DNA of 64,000 nucleotides, from the NCBI GenBank assembly GCA_035624535.1, contig DASPRI010000030.1:3067-67066 (forward strand), given 5' to 3'. A program made the position numbers and the translations under genes. Below, piece after piece: positions 3,568-63,920 of the stretch. Below the pieces are notes generated by a model that ran no database searches, was not told the origin of the DNA, and worked only from the letters and a program-made list of their open reading frames with translations. The DNA is from Burkholderiales bacterium. Its GTDB lineage: Bacteria; Pseudomonadota; Gammaproteobacteria; Burkholderiales; JAHFRG01. Within the stretch, counting starts at the first letter, position 1. Each line of letters begins with the position of its first letter.

Positions 3568-3918
3568 CTATTCTTCAAACGCGCTTTTTATCCACTCAAT
3601 ATCCCGCCGGCGCATTCCGCTTAGCAATACCGCGTCGAAACGGCAAGGTGCAGTTCCCCGTCTGGAAGCGAGGTAGTGACGTGCTGCCTTAAGCAGCTTT
3701 TCACGCTTTTTGGCGGTTATGCTTGCCGCCGCGCCGCCGAAATTGGCGTCAGTACGCAACCGCACTTCTGCAAACACCAAAGTGTCGCCGTCGCGAAGTA
3801 CCAGATCGATCTCGCCGAAGCGGCAGCGATAGTTGGTTTCCAATAATTTTAAACCTTGGTTTTGCAGAAAGGTCGCCGCTACGCGTTCCGCCGCAAGACC
3901 TTCAGCGTTTCGGTTCAT
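3568..3918 (-). CDS. yraN: YraN-family (UPF0102) predicted endonuclease
   Basis: 116 aa with a GEIDLV core, positioned between lpoA and the SIS gene as in the enterobacterial yraM-yraN-diaA-yraP block. Confidence 0.85.
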   Translation of the reverse strand: MNRNAEGLAAERVAATFLQNQGLKLLETNYRCRFGEIDLVLRDGDTLVFAEVRLRTDANFGGAAASITAKKREKLLKAARHYLASRRGTAPCRFDAVLLSGMRRRDIEWIKSAFEE

Positions 3919-5044
3919 ACAGCACTACGGCTTGGCCCCGATAAAATATCGCGGGGGTCAGTTCGCGTACGAACTGGTGATCGGAACTGAGGCTGATCTG
4001 TCCGGTTACACCATCAAGGGCATAGCCGGAATGCGCCCCAATCGTGGTCAAATCCTGGGAAATTCGGAACGCATCTATGCCTAAGGCATAGAGCCTTTCG
4101 AGGTCGACAATCACCGCATTTTTCGGACGCGGGTAAACCATTACGGCTGGATGATCGGATTGCAGTAGCCACGGCATATCGACAAAGCGTACCCCATTAA
4201 GATCTAGATTCAAAGTGCCCAGGCCGTTTCCGCTAAAGATCTGCGATGTTCCGTAAATGTTTACAGCTAAATCGATATAAGGCCGGACTAGGCGCGCATT
4301 CTTCGCCTCGAGCGCGAGGAAAATCATATCGGCTTCGCTTATTTCCACGGCCTGCTTAAGTGTCATCAAGCTGCTCTGTTCGCCGTTGAAAAGCAGCTGC
4401 CTAACAATTACGCCACCCAGTTTTTGCCATTCGTCGGCAAACGCTTCCTGCATGCGGCTGTCAAGCGGAGTGTCGGCGCTGATGATCAGCGCTTTGCGCT
4501 TGCCATCGTGCCAAGCCAACCTAGCGATTTGTCGTGTTTCGTTTTCAACCTGCAGGCTGAAAGTGAACAGGTACGGCGGCAATTCCGGGGAATCTTCCGG
4601 CACATTGAGTGCGAGTGTGGGAACGCGCACCATGCCGCTGATCGCTAAAGCCGTGACGGAATCCCGGGTAAGCGGGCCGACTACGACCTGCGCTCCCGCG
4701 TCCAGCGCGAGTTGATAGGTCGCAAGGATTTCATCTGTTTGCTCGCTTGTGGCGTAGGTTCTGACCGGCAGGCGGCTGCCGCCCTGGCGGCTCGCGGCGG
4801 CGATAAAGCCTTGCCGCGTGATTTCCGCAGCGCCGCCGAATGATTCCGATTTTAAAGGCAGGATTAAAGCAATATGCGGCTTGGGCGGTCCGGATTGGGT
4901 GTTAGCGGCAGCCGGCTTGGCTGGCACAGTTTGCCCTGCTGACGGCACCCCGTTTTCGGCGCGTGTGGCAAATGCTATGGCACATCCGTATAGTATTGCC
5001 AACAGCGTTAGCAGAAAGGCCGGCAAGCGTTGCATCGAATACAC
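3902..5044 (-). CDS. lpoA: Penicillin-binding protein activator LpoA-like lipoprotein
   Basis: 380 aa with a signal peptide and lipobox (LYGC) and a periplasmic-binding-protein-like body. It is divergent from rsmI, as yraM is from yraL. The start is uncertain (M1 or M4). Confidence 0.7.
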   Translation of the reverse strand: MYSMQRLPAFLLTLLAILYGCAIAFATRAENGVPSAGQTVPAKPAAANTQSGPPKPHIALILPLKSESFGGAAEITRQGFIAAASRQGGSRLPVRTYATSEQTDEILATYQLALDAGAQVVVGPLTRDSVTALAISGMVRVPTLALNVPEDSPELPPYLFTFSLQVENETRQIARLAWHDGKRKALIISADTPLDSRMQEAFADEWQKLGGVIVRQLLFNGEQSSLMTLKQAVEISEADMIFLALEAKNARLVRPYIDLAVNIYGTSQIFSGNGLGTLNLDLNGVRFVDMPWLLQSDHPAVMVYPRPKNAVIVDLERLYALGIDAFRISQDLTTIGAHSGYALDGVTGQISLSSDHQFVRELTPAIFYRGQAVVLYEPKR

Positions 5045-5928: not shown

Positions 5929-6960
5929 TTGCAGCGCATAACTTTCACCCGCCCGGACGATTGGCATGTGCATCTGCGCGATGGCGATGAGCTGCGGGCT
6001 GTGGTTAAAGATACTGCACGACGCTTTGCGCGTGCCATTGTCATGCCTAATCTCGAGCCGCCGATTACGACCGCCAAAATGGCGATGGCTTACCGGCGCC
6101 GTATCCTGGACGCTCTTCCGAAGCGATCAAAATTCCGGCCGCTGATGACTTTGTATTTGACCGCCAATGCCGATCCGAAGGAGATCATCGAAGCCAAACG
6201 CAGCGGTATTGTTTACGGAATGAAATATTATCCTGCCGGCGCCACCACTCATTCCGCTTCAGGAGTGACCGACCCGGAGAAAATTTTTGCGGCGCTAGAA
6301 GAAATGCAAAAACAGGATCTACCCCTTTTGGTGCATGGTGAAGTGACTGATCCGGAAGTCGATGTATTCGACCGCGAGCAAGTATTTATTGAGCGGGTGC
6401 TATCACGGGTAACACAACGCTTTCCACGGCTGCGAATCGTATTCGAACATATTACAACGCGCGAGGCGGTGGAGTATGTAAAAAGTGCGCCAGATAATAT
6501 CGCGGCAACCATAACGGCTCACCATCTGCTGCTGAATCGCAATGCAATGTTTTCCGGCGGCCTGCGACCCCACCATTTTTGCTTGCCTTTATTAAAGAGA
6601 GATTCACACCGGCAATCACTGATCAAGGCGGCGACCAGCGGCAATCCCAAATTTTTCCTTGGAAGCGATAGCGCGCCGCACTCAAAATCCAGCAAGCAGG
6701 CGGGGAGCGGCTGTGCCGGGATTTACACCGCACACGCGGCAATCGAGCTGTACACTGAGGCCTTTGAACTGGCCGGAGCACTCGACAAACTGGAAGCATT
6801 CGCCAGTTTCCATGGCGCTGATTTTTACCGATTGCCGCGAAACACCGATAAGATTGCGCTTGCCCGGCACAGCTGGAGAGTGCCGCGCAGCCTGCGTTTC
6901 GGAAAACAGAGCCTCATTCCCTTACGGGCGGGTGAAACCGTCAACTGGCAGTTGATCTAG
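5929..6960 (+). CDS. pyrC: Dihydroorotase, homodimeric (class II) type
   Basis: 343 aa beginning RPDDWHVHLRDG. The metal-binding motifs and overall length match PyrC. The start codon is TTG. Confidence 0.9.
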   Translation: MQRITFTRPDDWHVHLRDGDELRAVVKDTARRFARAIVMPNLEPPITTAKMAMAYRRRILDALPKRSKFRPLMTLYLTANADPKEIIEAKRSGIVYGMKYYPAGATTHSASGVTDPEKIFAALEEMQKQDLPLLVHGEVTDPEVDVFDREQVFIERVLSRVTQRFPRLRIVFEHITTREAVEYVKSAPDNIAATITAHHLLLNRNAMFSGGLRPHHFCLPLLKRDSHRQSLIKAATSGNPKFFLGSDSAPHSKSSKQAGSGCAGIYTAHAAIELYTEAFELAGALDKLEAFASFHGADFYRLPRNTDKIALARHSWRVPRSLRFGKQSLIPLRAGETVNWQLI

Positions 6961-7772: not shown

Positions 7773-8094
7773 GAAGCTGGCCAGACAGTCGCTGTACATA
7801 TCTTCAATATGTATAGAGGAAAGTCCGGGCTCCGCAGAGCAGGATGCCGGCTAACTGCCGGACGCCGTGAGGCGATGAACAGGGCCACAGAGACGAGTCG
7901 TAGCCGACGCTAGCTGCGCAGCTGCGGGTGAAACGAGGTAACCTCCATCCGGAGCAAGACCAAGTAGGGAAGCATTGACGCGGCTCGCGTAGCTTCCGGG
8001 TAGGTTGCTTGAGTGTGCGAGTAATCGCACGCCTAGAGAAATGACTGTCAAGGGAGCCATATCCCTAACAGAACCCGGCTTATAGGCCAGCTTC
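7773..8094 (+). ncRNA. rnpB: RNase P RNA, bacterial type A
   Basis: P1 pairing between GAAGCTGGCC (5' end) and GGCCAGCTTC (3' end). Universally conserved blocks are present: GAGGAAAGTCCGGGCTCC near the 5' end and ACAGAACCCGGCTTATAGG near the 3' end. A T-rich tract follows. Confidence 0.85.
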
Positions 8095-8255
8095 TCCCTA
8101 TTCCGCTTTCTTTTTTTGTCTGATCGTCCCCAGGCGAGATTTCTTTTCTTTCTCCCAAATGCTGCGTATCTAGCTATTTATTAAGAAGAATTAATAAAAT
8201 CCACGAAATATCACTTAAGTATCTGTCCCATAAAAGAAAAGGCTCGATTTTGTGC

Positions 8256-17183: not shown

Positions 17184-18338
17184 ATGGCATACGCATTGCA
17201 AAAAAGGCGCGCGCCGCTCCTAGAATTTGATGTATCGCTCGTTTGGGTAACTCTTACCTTGCTGAGTCTGGGGCTGGTGATGGTGTACTCGGCCTCGATA
17301 GCCATTGCCGAGGCAGGCAAATGGCATCAGCCGACCTTCTTTCTAATGCGGCATGCGGTTTTTATTGGCATCGGCATTGCGCTGGGAGCAACCGCATTTC
17401 AATTGCCGATGCAGCTTTGGCAGCGCATGTCTCCCTATCTGTTCTTGTTTGGCGCGGGCCTACTGGTATTGGTGCTGATTCCCGGAATAGGCCGCGAAGT
17501 CAATGGCGGCCAACGCTGGCTGCCGCTGGTTTTCGTTAACTTGCAGCCTTCGGAATTCATGAAACTCTTGGTGGTTATTTACGCCGCCGACTATACGGTG
17601 CGCAAGGCTGCGTGGATGCACAGCTTCCGCAAAGGTTTCCTGCCGATGTTGCTAGTGATGCTGCTGATCGGGGGACTGTTACTGCAAGAGCCCGATTTCG
17701 GCGCATTCGCAGTGATCACCGCGATCGCCATGGCGATCCTGTTTCTCGGAGGAATGAACTGGAAGCTTTTCGCTGGATTGATCTGCATGCTGATTATCGG
17801 TTTCCTGCTGTTGATATGGAGTTCACCCTATCGCATGCAACGCGTTATCGGTTTTATGGATCCTTGGGCGGATTCCTTTGGCAGTGGGTATCAATTGAGC
17901 CACGCGCTGATTGCATTCGGACGTGGCGCATGGTTGGGCGTGGGACTCGGTGGCAGCGTTGAAAAACTGCTTTACCTGCCTGAAGCGTACACCGATTTTC
18001 TGCTCGCTGTAATCGCGGAAGAGCTTGGGTTCGCCGGGGTCGTTGTGGTTATCGCGTTGTTCGCGTGGTTGGTGATGCGGGCGTTTGCCATTGGCCGTCA
18101 AGCGACTTATTTAGAGCGTTATTTTTCCGCGCTGGTAGCGCAAGGCATCGGCGTGTGGCTGGCAGTGCAGGCAATCATCAATATCGGGGTCAACATGGGT
18201 GTGCTGCCCACTAAGGGTTTGACTCTGCCGTTGATGAGCTTTGGCGGCAGCGGTATGGCTGCAAACTGCATTGCGATTGCATTGCTGTTACGAGTGGACT
18301 GGGAAAACCGCCAGCTCATGCGGGGGAAGCCCGTATGA
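17184..18338 (+). CDS. ftsW: Peptidoglycan glycosyltransferase FtsW (SEDS family)
   Basis: 384 aa, polytopic SEDS protein (PSEFMK, LQPDFG-like [16 protein letters not shown]). It starts immediately after the murD stop. Confidence 0.95.
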
Positions 18339-18425
18339 GCTGGCAGGTTTCGGTGGAGGCTAACGTGGCGACAACCAACGTTATGCCGGAACCAAAACCA
18401 GGGCTCATGCGGGGGAAGCCCGTAT
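18314..18425 (+). repeat. 23-nt perfect direct repeat of the ftsW 3' end flanking a 66-nt insert
   Basis: GCTCATGCGGGGGAAGCCCGTAT occurs at 18314-18336 and again at 18403-18425. The insert at 18337-18402 contains the conserved core 18348-18397, which is shared with the sucD 3' region. Confidence 0.9.
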
Positions 18426-18427
18426 AG

Positions 18428-19510
18428 ATGAGCCGCGCGATATTGATAATGGCGGGAGGCACCGGCGGCCATGTGTTTCCCGGCTTGGCCGTGGCGGAAT
18501 TTTTCAGGCAGCAAGGGTGGCGCGTGGTGTGGTTGGGCACGCACGCAGGCATGGAGGCGAAGTTGGTCGTGCAACAAGGATATGAAATGGCATGGGTGAG
18601 CTTTTCAGGTGTGAGAGGAAAAAGCGCGCTGCGCTTTTTGTTGCTTCCGATGAAATTACTAGTGGCATTCTGGCAGTCGGCGCGGGCGATATTCAAGTAT
18701 CGGCCGGATGTGGTGCTCGGCATGGGCGGTTATGTGGCTTTTCCGGGGGGAATGATGGCCTCCTTATTAAATAGGCCGCTGGTGATACACGAGCAGAATT
18801 CAATAGCTGGCTTGGCCAACAAAATACTGGCAAAACTCGCAGACCGCGTTTTAGTGGCTTTCCCTGAGGCGTTTGGCGCGGCAACGACTGGAATCCAAAT
18901 AGTTACCGGAAATCCGGTGCGCAGCGAAATCCTGACCATCGAGCCGCCCGAGACGCGCTATAGCAAGCGTACGGGACCGTTACATGTACTGGTGGTGGGC
19001 GGAAGCTTGGGAGCGCAGGTGCTCAACGAGACGGTGCCGCAAGCTTTGGCGCTATTGCCGCGCGAGGCCCGGCCACTGGTCACTCACCAATCAGGTGCAC
19101 AACACTTTGCTGCTCTCAAGGAAGGATATGCGCGCGCCGGCGTCGAAGCGCGCGTTGAAGCATTTATCGCCGACATGGCGCATTGCTACGCGGAGTCCGA
19201 TTTGCTGATTTGCCGTGCCGGTGCGCTCACCGTTGCTGAAATCGCCGTTGCGGGTATCGCCAGCATCCTGGTGCCTTATCCGCTGGCAGCAGACGATCAC
19301 CAGACCCACAATGCGCGCCACCTATCGGACCAGGGGGCAGCCTGGATTCTTCAGCAAAGTGATTTGAGTGCGCGTTCGCTCGCCGATCTGTTGCGGGGAA
19401 TTAATCGTGAGAATTTGCTGCAAGTCGCGCGCCGCGCGCGGCAGCTCGGAAAGCCCGACGCTACCCAGTTAGTGGCACGCTCATGCATGGAGTTGGCTTA
19501 TGCAGGATAA
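18428..19510 (+). CDS. murG: UDP-N-acetylglucosamine--N-acetylmuramyl-(pentapeptide) pyrophosphoryl-undecaprenol GlcNAc transferase
   Basis: 360 aa beginning ILIMAGGTGGHVFPGLAVA, with a GT28 fold, in the expected dcw position. Confidence 0.95.
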   Translation: MSRAILIMAGGTGGHVFPGLAVAEFFRQQGWRVVWLGTHAGMEAKLVVQQGYEMAWVSFSGVRGKSALRFLLLPMKLLVAFWQSARAIFKYRPDVVLGMGGYVAFPGGMMASLLNRPLVIHEQNSIAGLANKILAKLADRVLVAFPEAFGAATTGIQIVTGNPVRSEILTIEPPETRYSKRTGPLHVLVVGGSLGAQVLNETVPQALALLPREARPLVTHQSGAQHFAALKEGYARAGVEARVEAFIADMAHCYAESDLLICRAGALTVAEIAVAGIASILVPYPLAADDHQTHNARHLSDQGAAWILQQSDLSARSLADLLRGINRENLLQVARRARQLGKPDATQLVARSCMELAYAG

Positions 19511-58848: not shown

Positions 58849-59223
58849 TAAAATCCCTCTCGATGTGCTTCAGTTTCGCGCAGCGTTAACGTCTATCCAG
58901 TGATTCAGGCACTGTTGGCAAAACTCTACAAATATTGTTCAGCTTGCGAGGGCTGGCAGCAGCTGCAAGCGCAGACCGATGTAAATCTCAGTCCAAAAAT
59001 GGACCACCGGTCGCAAGGCTTGCGTACACGATCATTAGAAACCGGCAGGGGCTCAAGGTTCTGATGTCTAATTGGCGCAAAACATTTTGAAGACGGTTGA
59101 GCTTCTGTTACACGCGTATTTTAAATGCTCGCCCGTTGCCGCAACGCTGCAGGTGCCTTCAGTTGCGCAGCATTTTACCACGATTGGCCGGTAGCGTCGG
59201 CATGCTATCGGGTTTCGCGAACC

Positions 59224-59459
59224 TTAGCCTGCACCGAAAATTGGCCTCATAACATGGACTTCACCAGCTTGCCCATCTCGGCAGGATTGCGGGTGACTTT
59301 GATCCCACACTCTTCCCTTATTTTGCGTCTTTTTGGTTCCGGCATAACATTGCGCTTGCCGCAATGTTAGCCTGCACCGAAAATTGGCCTCACAGCACGG
59401 ATTTCACCAGCTTGCCCATCTCGGCAGGATTGCGGGTGACTTTGATCCCACACTCTTCC
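59224..59459 (-). repeat. 93-nt direct repeat (89/93 identical) duplicating the sucD 3' end, stop codon and 23 nt downstream
   Basis: Copy B (59367-59459) comprises the last 22 codons (plus one base of the preceding codon) of sucD, its TGA, and 23 nt downstream. Copy A (59224-59316) lies 50 nt further downstream in the sucD sense. The four mismatches all fall in the last four sucD codons. Confidence 0.9.
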
Positions 59460-60265
59460 ATCACGGCCAATTTTTCTTGGGCGGTTCCTTTACCTCCAGA
59501 AATAATCGCGCCCGCGTGGCCCATTCTTTTCCCAGGCGGTGCAGTCACTCCTGCAATAAAACCAACCACCGGCTTTTGCATGTTGTCCCTAATCCAGCGA
59601 GCACAATCTTCTTCGTCGGTGCCGCCGATTTCTCCGACCATAATCACTGCGTCAGTATTCGGATCTTCATGAAACATTTTCATGACATCGATATGTTTGA
59701 ACCCCCCAACCGGATCGCCGCCGATGCCGACGCAGGTAGATTGCCCCAGCCCTTGCTCCATCAATTGTCCTACCGCTTCGTAAGTCAGCGTACCTGAGCG
59801 TGAGACCACACCGACACGCCCTTTCTTGTGTATGTGTCCCGGCATGATGCCAATCTTAATTTCATCCGGCGTAATAACCCCGGGGCAATTCGGACCAATG
59901 AGAACCGTTTTCTTGTCCCGCATCTTGTAGCGGGTGCGGATCATGTCGCGCGCTGGTATGCCCTCGGTGATGCAGATCACCAAATCGAGCTCGGCTTCTA
60001 CCGCTTCATCAATCGCCGCCGCTGCGAATGGCGCAGGAACATAAATCACCGAAACGGTGGCGCCAGTTTTCTCCCGGGCTTCGCGTACCGTGTCGAAAAC
60101 CGGGATACCCTCGAAATCCTGTCCGCCTTTGCCCGGAGTGACCCCTGCGACGAAGCAGTTTCCGCCATTCGCGTAATCGCGGCACATGCGCGTATGGAAT
60201 TGGCCAGTTTTACCGGTTATCCCCTGAGTCATGACCCGGGTATTTTTGTTGATTAGAATCGCCAT
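59390..60265 (-). CDS. sucD: Succinate--CoA ligase [ADP-forming] alpha subunit
   Basis: 291 aa beginning [21 protein letters not shown], with SRSGTLTYE and the active-site MGHAGAI. Confidence 0.95.
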
Positions 60266-63824: not shown

Positions 63825-63847
63825 CTTTTAGATTTTCGGAAGTTCGG

Positions 63848-63920
63848 TGCCGGCAAAAGGACTCGAACCCTCGACCAACTGATTACAAATCAGCTGCTCT
63901 ACCAACTGAGCTATGCCGGC
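63848..63920 (-). tRNA. tRNA-Thr (anticodon UGU)
   Basis: The reverse complement GCCGGCATAGCTCAGTTGGTAGAGCAGCTGATTTGTAATCAGTTGGTCGAGGGTTCGAGTCCTTTTGCCGGCA folds by hand into a 73-nt cloverleaf. It has a 7-bp acceptor stem, anticodon loop TTTGTAA and T-loop TTCGAGT. CCA is not encoded. Confidence 0.9.

Follow-up and report, generated by a model that had tools for sequence, protein, structure and literature searches.

A duplicated sucD 3' end in a Burkholderiales bacterium is probably the footprint of a small mobile hairpin

The DNA analysed here, referred to as the window, is a stretch of 64,000 nucleotides (nt) from a Burkholderiales bacterium (assembly GCA_035624535.1, contig DASPRI010000030.1, positions 3,067 to 67,066 of the forward strand). 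Its minus strand contains sucD (59390-60265), which was taken from the list of open reading frames (ORFs) and encodes the alpha subunit of succinyl-CoA ligase. Related loci fetched for comparison, about 0.5 Mb together, are numbered with the prefix L; L001-L005 are conspecific, and the identical protein in them carries the Pfam domains CoA_binding and Ligase_CoA. The 3' end of sucD occurs as a direct repeat (59224-59316 and 59367-59459), and one copy of a short dispersed hairpin, which we call E, lies between the two sucD tails. An earlier interpretation made without database searches (the sequence-only reading) had drawn attention to this repeat, and we reproduced its coordinates, its size of 93 nt, the identity of 89/93 and the start-to-start spacing of 143 nt. 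That description stood, except that the sucD tail occurs a third time, in decayed form, at 59108-59189, which it had missed.

Read in the sense of sucD, with all features on the minus strand, the locus runs from the target through the functional tail and its TGA, a short segment S', an element copy E1, a rearranged junction, the second tail (copy A) and an element copy E2 to the third tail, D2. The original target GAAAAATTGGCC lies inside sucD (59465-59476) and covers Glu-Lys codons. Copy B (or U; 59367-59459) holds the last 22 codons of sucD, the TGA (59390-59392) and 23 nt of 3' flank, namely S' (GGCCAAT, 59383-59389) and the left arm of E1 (59367-59382). GGCCAAT is the reverse complement of ATTGGCC (S) in the target, and the counterpart of this S/S' pair in relatives is GGAAAAGTTGGCC with AGGCCAAC. 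The spacer and the last 16 nt of copy B together make up one copy of E, composed of TTTCGGTGSAGGCTAA, a variable stem-loop and GTTATGCCGGAACCAAAA. This copy, E1 (59331-59382), is 52 nt long (TTTCGGTGCAGGCTAA-CATTGCGGCAAGCGCAATG-TTATGCCGGAACCAAAA), folds into a hairpin and was matched by the covariance model R1 with 68.2 bits (E=3e-19). The perfect 9-bp hairpin AACATTGCG-CTTGC-CGCAATGTT that the sequence-only reading had placed at 59346-59368 was found there and nowhere else in the window; it forms the apex of a longer imperfect hairpin with arms at 59331-59354 and 59360-59383.

The rearranged junction (59316-59330) is AGACGCAAAATAAGG, 14-15 nt long, in place of the expected TTGGCCGTGATG, and it sets copy A in frame with the ATG of frame f0; its counterpart in relatives is GCTTAGA, GCTCATG or GCTTATG, with the copy in frame f1. 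A mini-ORF from the ORF list (59247-59345) joins the right arm of the element, the junction and copy A. Copy A (or D1; 59224-59316) comprises the duplicated tail with a V to M change and a stop at 59247-59249, a second GGCCAAT (59240-59246) and a second left arm (59224-59239). The four differences between copies A and B all fall within the last four codons (AAA/AAG, GTG/ATG and CTG/TTA). E2 (59190-59239) is a degenerate, older copy of the element, recognised from its orphan left arm; the arm is intact and the rest has diverged, with a weak resemblance in alignment to a long subfamily of E described below. D2 (59108-59189) has stops in the homologous frame and is identical to the tail in 48 of 83 columns (58%). 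Its global alignment score of 9, compared with -19 +/- 4.7 for controls, was reached by 0/2000 shuffles and 0/2985 genomic 82-mers. Both E2 and D2 are also found in L001-L003. Between D2 and fdsB (58849-59107, minus strand), the window and its conspecifics hold about 250 nt more non-coding DNA than L087 and L094, with which only the promoter-proximal part of this region (GCAAGCTGAAnAATATT..) is common.

The sucD duplication is not an assembly artefact, because the copies differ at four positions and because independent assemblies of relatives (L027, L045, L087 and L094) share the layout. The contigs of two conspecifics (L004 and L005) reach the same junction between sucD and the element and then end inside the insert. 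Simple tandem duplication of a 143-nt unit was considered and rejected: the sequence after copy B is unlike the spacer, and the core of the spacer is dispersed elsewhere.

A second copy of E lies in the insert between ftsW and murG. The core common to the two sites, noted in the sequence-only reading, was confirmed as the 18-mer GTTATGCCGGAACCAAAA, which occurs exactly at 18380-18397 (plus strand) and 59331-59348 (minus strand), with 0.13 occurrences expected. Left arms are located at 18348-18364, 59366-59382 and 59223-59239. The window contains two full copies of E, at sucD and at ftsW/murG, and none further; a weak model match within an ordinary gene (3707-3743) was dismissed as due to chance. 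When one genome per species was scanned with the 18-mer, 74 loci were obtained, where chance alone would give about 17. Of the 74, some 55-60 belong to metagenome-assembled genomes (MAGs) of Gallionella, Gallionellaceae, Rhodocyclaceae and other members of the GTDB Burkholderiales, and there the architecture is uniform: TTTCGGTGGAGGCTAA-variable stem-GTTATGCCGGAACCAAAA.

Alignment of 36 distinct copies showed conserved arms and covariation in the apical stem, with 69 double-sided changes versus 26 +/- 3.6 in shuffles; the cells of the stem are paired in 88% of cases, compared with 33-42% when the partners are slid. Pairing of the arms, GTTTCGGTGGAGGCTAAC with GTTATGCCGGAACCAAAAC, is interrupted by one bulge and a 3x3 internal loop, and the arms form terminal inverted repeats. 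The orientation of E is defined, because the covariance model scores one strand far above the other (68 and 67 bits for the two window copies, 18 and 10 bits for their reverse strands). The density is roughly one copy per 30-100 kb (the window, of 64 kb, has 2), with 1-3 exact-arm copies per MAG, and in the fetched loci additional copies are grouped as arrays beside the primary ones. The housekeeping genes entered are unrelated and include those for AspAT, HisC, FolE2, Acs, FtsW and SucD, among others, giving at least 7 different targets, and about 35/57 copies lie 2-54 nt downstream of the end of a co-oriented ORF. We consider it likely that the sucD duplication is the footprint of E, a small non-autonomous mobile hairpin of 41-53 nt with a defined orientation. 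[quoted passage not shown]

Two variations of the pattern were recorded. In L080 (~4080-4260) and L013, both from the MAG DATMDB01, an obg-like gene has E at its 5' end in antisense, with a 58-nt duplication of its first 19 codons (MKFIDEA...); E is therefore not confined to gene 3' ends. A longer subfamily of about 60 nt consists of the left arm, a hairpin, GTTAAG, a second hairpin and CGGnCGTAGCCAAA, and often stands in tandem with standard copies (L035 ~3782-3844 and L071 ~6398-6460; L029 and L084 hold orphan left arms). Two resemblances to known motifs were dropped: to integron attC sites, since the inner stem carries an R-box-like GTTATGC in an element that is too short, and to DNA uptake sequences, since the likeness to ATGCCGTCTGAA is partial and the whole 50 nt are conserved.

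According to a rival explanation, the region would be an RNA feature of the sucD 3' untranslated region (UTR), that is, a small RNA (sRNA) similar to SdhX, a terminator or a stabilizer, and the duplication would serve the RNA function. Most copies of E share the orientation of the upstream gene, the fold is stable (z = -3.2 in sense and -5.0 in antisense), the apical stem co-varies, and a conserved GGA/GGA internal loop is a candidate protein-binding site. However, no match of the E region to Rfam was obtained at the gathering threshold or at E<=10. In sense, the hairpin is followed by AAAA and not by a T-run, and the sucD strand has no terminator- or promoter-like site. E is also present at operon junctions and antisense at the obg 5' end, covariation of the stem is equally expected of a DNA hairpin, and the duplication of coding sequence is left unexplained. 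The SdhX-like sRNA raised as a speculative link in the sequence-only reading thus found no support, and we regard an RNA feature as a slim possibility here.

At the second site in the window all features lie on the plus strand. The upstream copy of the target duplication, AAAACCGCCAGCTCATGCGGGGGAAGCCCGTAT (18304-18336), is the tail of FtsW. It is followed by GAGCTGGCAGG (18337-18347), the reverse complement of CCgCCAGCTC, which supplies the GA of a new ftsW stop codon TGA and which we term the snap-back segment. The 50-nt E copy (18348-18397; R1 66.9 bits, E=8e-19) comes next, and then the downstream duplication copy AAAACC-AGGGCTCATGCGGGGGAAGCCCGTAT (18394-18425), which leads into the native TAG/ATG junction of ftsW and murG. 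A mini-ORF (18335-18427) extends from an ATGA overlap with the ftsW stop to the TAG directly before the murG ATG, and in L008 it has been called as a gene of 30 amino acids. Two relatives, L090 (FtsW 90% identical) and L091, have an empty ftsW/murG junction, ...CCGGTATAG/ATGAGCCGC... (GTATAG/ATGAGC), with neither E nor S'. Compared with these sites the window has gained S' (GAGCTGGCAGG, which both empty sites lack), the 50-nt E and the re-copied AAAACC...GTAT block. Alignment of L090:1802-1880 and L091:1802-1880 with window positions 18300-18430 showed GAGAAT and GAGAGC, with no AAAA, at the empty sites, and GAAAAY in all filled relatives. This pattern, in a small sample, is consistent with a requirement for an A-tract in the insertion of E. 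L094 and L091 come from the same MAG (GCA_035543335.1), where the sucD site is filled and the ftsW site is empty; hence the two insertions of the window are independent in history. In L023 (~4170-4400), the ORF beginning at the ftsW stop has been shifted into f0 by a spacer indel, so that it runs through E into MurG and may give an N-terminally extended MurG.

The same anatomy recurs across the family. About 20 of some 57 betaproteobacterial E copies are flanked by long direct repeats (16-114 nt). The duplicated interval measures 33-114 nt and normally extends from inside the 3' end of the co-oriented gene to 0-60 nt past its stop codon. In 20/23 units the repeat begins at an AAAA that coincides with the terminal AAAA of E itself (the A4 rule), compared with a background frequency of AAAA of 0.43% per position; the other three units have slipped in register at rearranged junctions. 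In most cases the native target is GAAAAY, which typically encodes Glu-Asn. On the other side of E, directly 5' of TTTCGG, stands S', a segment of 5-14 nt that is the reverse complement of the bases after the AAAA. Complementarity of at least 5 nt was found in 15/23 units, versus 0.29% of control positions, and reaches 11/11 in L049, 13/14 in L065 and 10/10 in L083. Between the upstream target copy and E lie 0-60 nt, the 3' part of which is the inverted target copy. Sites that were never filled (ftsW/murG in L090 and L091; sucD in L095-L097) lack both E and S'. Short-read metagenome contigs (L004, L005, L007, L008, L010 and L011) end inside or beside E at sucD and ftsW/murG.

To account for these scars, we propose that E is copied into its targets. 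Synthesis would be primed at an A4/T4 tract of the target paired with the A-tail of E, and would run through E to a defined 5' end; the A-run in the sucD target GAAAAATTGGCC is the presumed priming site. The self-complementary new strand would then snap back on the hairpin and copy a few target bases, giving S'. If the end rejoined the target downstream of the point of departure, the interval between would be copied twice. The bias toward gene tails could be a matter of survivorship, in that insertion at an AAAA inside a gene would be tolerated only if the duplicated interval passed the stop codon, and this seems the simplest account of it. Both target-primed reverse transcription (TPRT) and a template-switching DNA polymerase would leave the same scars. 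The TPRT junctions of short and long interspersed nuclear elements (SINEs and LINEs) have a staggered second nick, microhomology and irregular 5' ends (PMC2881922).

The main rival to copying-in is a staggered-cut transposase. In that case E would be a MITE moved by a conventional DNA transposase with wide and variable staggered cuts, and the duplications would be ordinary target-site duplications (TSDs). The imperfect terminal inverted repeats of E, of about 18-19 nt, and the flanking direct repeats fit this explanation, and IS1549 and IS1634 yield direct repeats of 8-514 bp by a mechanism that has not been modelled (PMC2266710). However, staggered cuts predict nothing between the TSD and the element, where 0-60 nt with an inverted copy of the target are found, and the right junction always overlaps the A4 microhomology; neither S' nor this overlap is predicted by a transposase of this kind. 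In addition, no full-length parent with the ends of E was found in the fetched loci. We therefore judge conventional transposition to be improbable. The most far-reaching form of the copy-in proposal, in which E is a bacterial SINE-like element whose small, structured and A-tailed template of defined 5' end is copied into A4/T4 sites by a reverse transcriptase or a switching DNA polymerase, in target- or nick-primed synthesis with template jumps, and in which the tail peptides, translated separately, were recruited, coupled and selected at some sites, is conceivable, with the odds clearly against it.

At sucD, the primary insertion is old and shared, because L027, L045, L087 and L094 carry the same 52-nt E with a similar apical stem, the same S' and a homologous junction. 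L045 and L087 contain arrays of the form tail-E-tail-E-tail. Such arrays would be products of unequal crossing-over between tail copies, with a single-copy allele as the reciprocal product, and the sucD series as a whole could be described as an ancestral insertion followed by duplication or loss of units through unequal recombination between tails, together with shuffling of alleles. In L095-L097 the sucD 3' flanks are unrelated and contain no GGCCAAY and no left arm, and the same is true of the native flank after the last copy in L027 and L087. Among the conspecifics, which have an identical SucD protein, L004 and L005 are filled and L001-L003 are exactly 143 nt shorter. The latter were rejected as pre-insertion sites: they still hold E2 and D2 as well as GGCCAAT and the left arm, the last two of which are absent from the never-filled L095-L097 and from the native flanks in L027 and L087.

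The succession of functional tail, insert and displaced tail, with mostly synonymous differences, also resembles the attachment of prophages at icd. The two copies might thus be attL and attR remnants of an integrative element or prophage that carried a replacement sucD tail and was later mostly deleted. Yet the insert is only 50 nt long and has no ORF of its own, the same core lies between duplications of many genes (at least 7 targets), there is no integrase nearby in the window, and the junctions show the A4 and snap-back features. This explanation is already contradicted by these observations and retains next to no probability.

The in-frame mini-ORF of 32 codons that the sequence-only reading had described, beginning with MPEPK at ATG 59345, is present. 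Its first five codons, ATG CCG GAA CCA AAA, are the invariant right arm of E in frame f0. Apart from the two sites in the window, f0 matches the register of the tail copy in just one case, the close relative L033. The sucD copies of L027, L045, L087 and L094 are read in f1 (MLCRNQK-L-x-V-x-x-CGIKV...), and there f0 stops or is out of frame, which does not support the conserved frame hinted at in the sequence-only reading. The register in the window arises from a +2 rearrangement of the junction, from TTGGCCGTGATG (12 nt) to GACGCAAAATAAGG (14 nt); at the ftsW junction of the window, a loss of 1 nt also brings f0 into register. The stretch concerned is the part of the junction that would extend the S'-E-S palindrome, and every sucD lineage shows a rearrangement of it. 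The register in the window is explained by instability of the junction as well as it would be by restoration of the frame. We conclude that the MPEPK mini-ORF at sucD is a by-product, in which the right arm of E was brought into register by a lineage-specific junction rearrangement.

The alternative is that copy A is a functional small gene, for which E provides the start codon and in which a free SucD C-terminal peptide of 32 amino acids is kept by selection. In each of the five lineages, an ORF that begins with an ATG in the right arm of E does cover the sucD copy in the native frame (f0 for the window; f1 for L027, L045, L087 and L094), the differences between copies are mostly synonymous throughout the family, and the tails at FolE2 and Gallionella ftsW are constrained (pN/pS, the ratio of non-synonymous to synonymous differences per site, of 0.066 and 0.24, versus >1 in other frames). 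The sequence-only reading had taken the three synonymous differences out of four between copies A and B as a weak hint that the frame of the copy is conserved. Polarisation by L001-L005 (AAG TCC GTG TTA TGA) reversed this reading: at the three synonymous positions it is the functional copy B that has the derived state, and the one private change of copy A, GTG to ATG (V to M), is non-synonymous. Among relatives, the terminal sucD copy has V to M in L087, has S to A in L094 and no longer has its stop codon in L045, so that V to M occurs twice and loss of the stop once. D2, at 58% identity and with stops, displays the decay without conservation of the frame that had been named beforehand as a refutation. 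The N-terminal part and the frame vary among lineages, which, with the decay of D2, is not the behaviour of a conserved small-protein gene. No Shine-Dalgarno sequence lies near ATG 59345, where the left arm is GGTGCAGGC and not GGTGGAGGC, and an exact look-up showed that the mini-ORF has never been called as a gene in public assemblies. Two synonymous tail haplotypes (h1 and h2) stand in swapped positions in L027 and L045, and both copies of L094 share an E to G change, as would be expected from allele shuffling and concerted evolution. We therefore consider a selected small gene at sucD very unlikely. On the sequence evidence, the sucD copies fit neutral or concertedly evolving duplicates with allele shuffling, not a conserved peptide gene. 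A metagenome scan for junctions of the sucD type returned one locus, L087, which is too few for a dN/dS estimate specific to sucD. The change of GTG to ATG at the third-last codon occurred in separate lineages, in copy A of the window (59250-59255) and in copy 3 of L087; in the window it creates ATGTTATGA, which resembles ATGTTATGCC of E.

Several points weigh against the reading of the duplication as the footprint of a mobile hairpin copied into place, with the mini-ORF as its by-product. All E copies were found via one exact 18-mer, so that the sample is biased to young or conserved copies. No transposase or reverse transcriptase was found beside E in the fetched loci, nor did these loci yield a template RNA for E, a mobilising enzyme, a source gene or an autonomous parent. 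Viral contigs gave two chance matches to the 18-mer that were not matched by the model, and plasmids gave none, at the sensitivity used. The evidence for the copy-in and snap-back steps is the anatomy of the junctions. The direction of the 143-nt difference within the species could be either way, since L001-L003 may precede E1 or may be deletions between the 93-nt repeats. The 93-nt repeat in the window is not a simple primary target duplication, because it includes S' and the left arm; either a unit was duplicated or a re-insertion was joined by way of the left arm. Finally, when 20 loci were summed, the copy pairs differed by 72 synonymous versus 15 non-synonymous codons (194 synonymous and 667 non-synonymous sites), and the tails at older sites (FolE2 and Gallionellaceae ftsW) are under purifying selection at the codon level between species, and 'mere by-product' therefore does not hold for every site.

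The data on the older sites are as follows. For FolE2 in four species (L036, L039, L082 and L083), pN/pS was 0.066 in the downstream copies, compared with 2.9 in the other frames, and 0.021 in the upstream copies; the small ORF there begins 2 nt after the upstream stop. At ftsW/murG in six species of Gallionellaceae (L035, L041, L047, L067, L070 and L085), the duplication spans the junction of the two genes and creates a chimeric small ORF composed of the murG' N-terminus, E in f1 and the ftsW' tail, which overlaps the ftsW stop at its start and murG at its end, each time through ATGA. The ftsW' tail copy gave a pN/pS of 0.24 (1.3-2.0 in other frames) and the true FtsW tail 0.14, and the adjacent murG' remnant was neutral, with 0.77 (0.75-0.99 in other frames). 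The downstream ftsW copies hold codons of their own that are common across species.

Recombination that joins alleles of functional tails can explain part of the synonymous excess. Passage of ribosomes through the insert, for coupling or avoidance of polarity, would explain the open frame but not the conservation of amino acids. The near-universal f1 register had been considered as proof of translational selection, and this argument was weakened: GAAAAY stands in the phase GAA-AAY in 51% of its occurrences, which gives 0.51^8 ~0.005 for 8 independent loci, so that the register is moderately beyond expectation. Conservation of the tails is not general, because the ftsW copy in L093, the AspAT copy (L to P) and the third sucD copy of the window (D2) decay. 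The idea that the copies are readable as protein thus has some substance at FolE2 and Gallionellaceae ftsW, where the tails are under purifying selection, and not at sucD.

If the anatomy of the junctions is read correctly, E would represent bacterial mobile DNA with scars that resemble those of eukaryotic retroposons and not those of cut-and-paste or HUH transposons, and the family offers a concrete sequence model for testing a retroposon-like insertion mechanism. In practice, E interrupts short-read assemblies at housekeeping loci and gives rise to spurious small ORFs and 'duplicated gene ends', which are open to over-interpretation by annotators; it also yields tandem arrays as well as secondary deletions that mimic empty sites. 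The conservation of the FolE2 and ftsW tails bears on the origin of operon coupling, or of tail-mimic peptides, from selfish insertions. Unrelated to these features, the window also encodes a class A RNase P RNA (7773-8098, plus strand, 261 bits) and a tRNA-Thr(TGT) (63846-63920, minus strand).

Among known systems, the enterobacterial sRNA SdhX, derived from the sucD 3' UTR, is similar to E in lying downstream of sucD. It differs in that no match in sequence or structure was found, that an intrinsic terminator, with a T-run after a GC-rich hairpin on the transcribed strand, is lacking here as is a match to any known RNA family, and that E is not specific to sucD. In the case of e14 and phage 21 at icd, the 3' end of a gene is present twice, with mainly synonymous differences, and the gene remains intact. 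Those are prophages of 20-40 kb with an integrase, carrying a replacement end, whereas the 50-nt E re-copies local sequence; the single target gene and the integrase between the repeats that mark the remnants of integrative elements were not found with E.

REP/REPIN, ERIC, Correia/NEMIS, BOX and RUP repeats share more with E: they are short, imperfectly palindromic, non-coding and dispersed, and lie mostly just downstream of genes or within operons. They also have a variable apical part, conserved arms and no gene of their own, as E does. However, REPs and REPINs cause no target duplication, are tied to RAYT transposases and exceed 100 copies per genome, and MITEs of the Correia type have 2-bp duplications. 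E is set apart from all of these by duplications of 33-114 nt, the A4 microhomology, the snap-back segment and an apparently moderate copy number. With MITEs in general it shares small size, dispersal and terminal inverted repeats, but not a fixed short TSD, the duplications being variable. IS1549 and IS1634 are the only bacterial insertion sequences reported with long variable direct repeats, of 8-514 bp (PMC2266710). Unlike E, they are autonomous elements of 1.5-2 kb with a DDE transposase, for which no A4 rule or snap-back has been reported, and they come from Mycoplasma and Mycobacterium, not from Betaproteobacteria.

The mycobacterial interspersed repetitive units (MIRUs) of Mycobacterium and the Rickettsia palindromic elements (RPEs) are small repeats in operons or genes that keep reading frames open. 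As with MIRUs, the mini-ORF that E carries at ftsW/murG begins in an ATGA overlap with the stop of the upstream gene and extends to the start of the downstream one. RPEs are inserted in frame and MIRUs are minisatellites in tandem; neither re-copies the tail of a host gene as E does. The features of L1 and Alu junctions support a likeness to SINEs and LINEs. In bacteria, no TPRT with target duplications is known, and E differs from SINEs in that its A-tail measures only 4 nt. Similar to SINEs and other non-LTR (long terminal repeat) retroposons that use TPRT, E has a 3' junction that is precise and a 5' junction that is untidy, with additional or inverted sequence. It is also non-autonomous, and its A-rich 3' end abuts a duplication that starts with A and varies in length, as in those elements (PMC2881922). 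The two scars that characterise retroposons, a duplication that starts at an A-rich site by the 3' A-tail and an irregular 5' junction, were found in 20/23 and 15/23 units of E, respectively.

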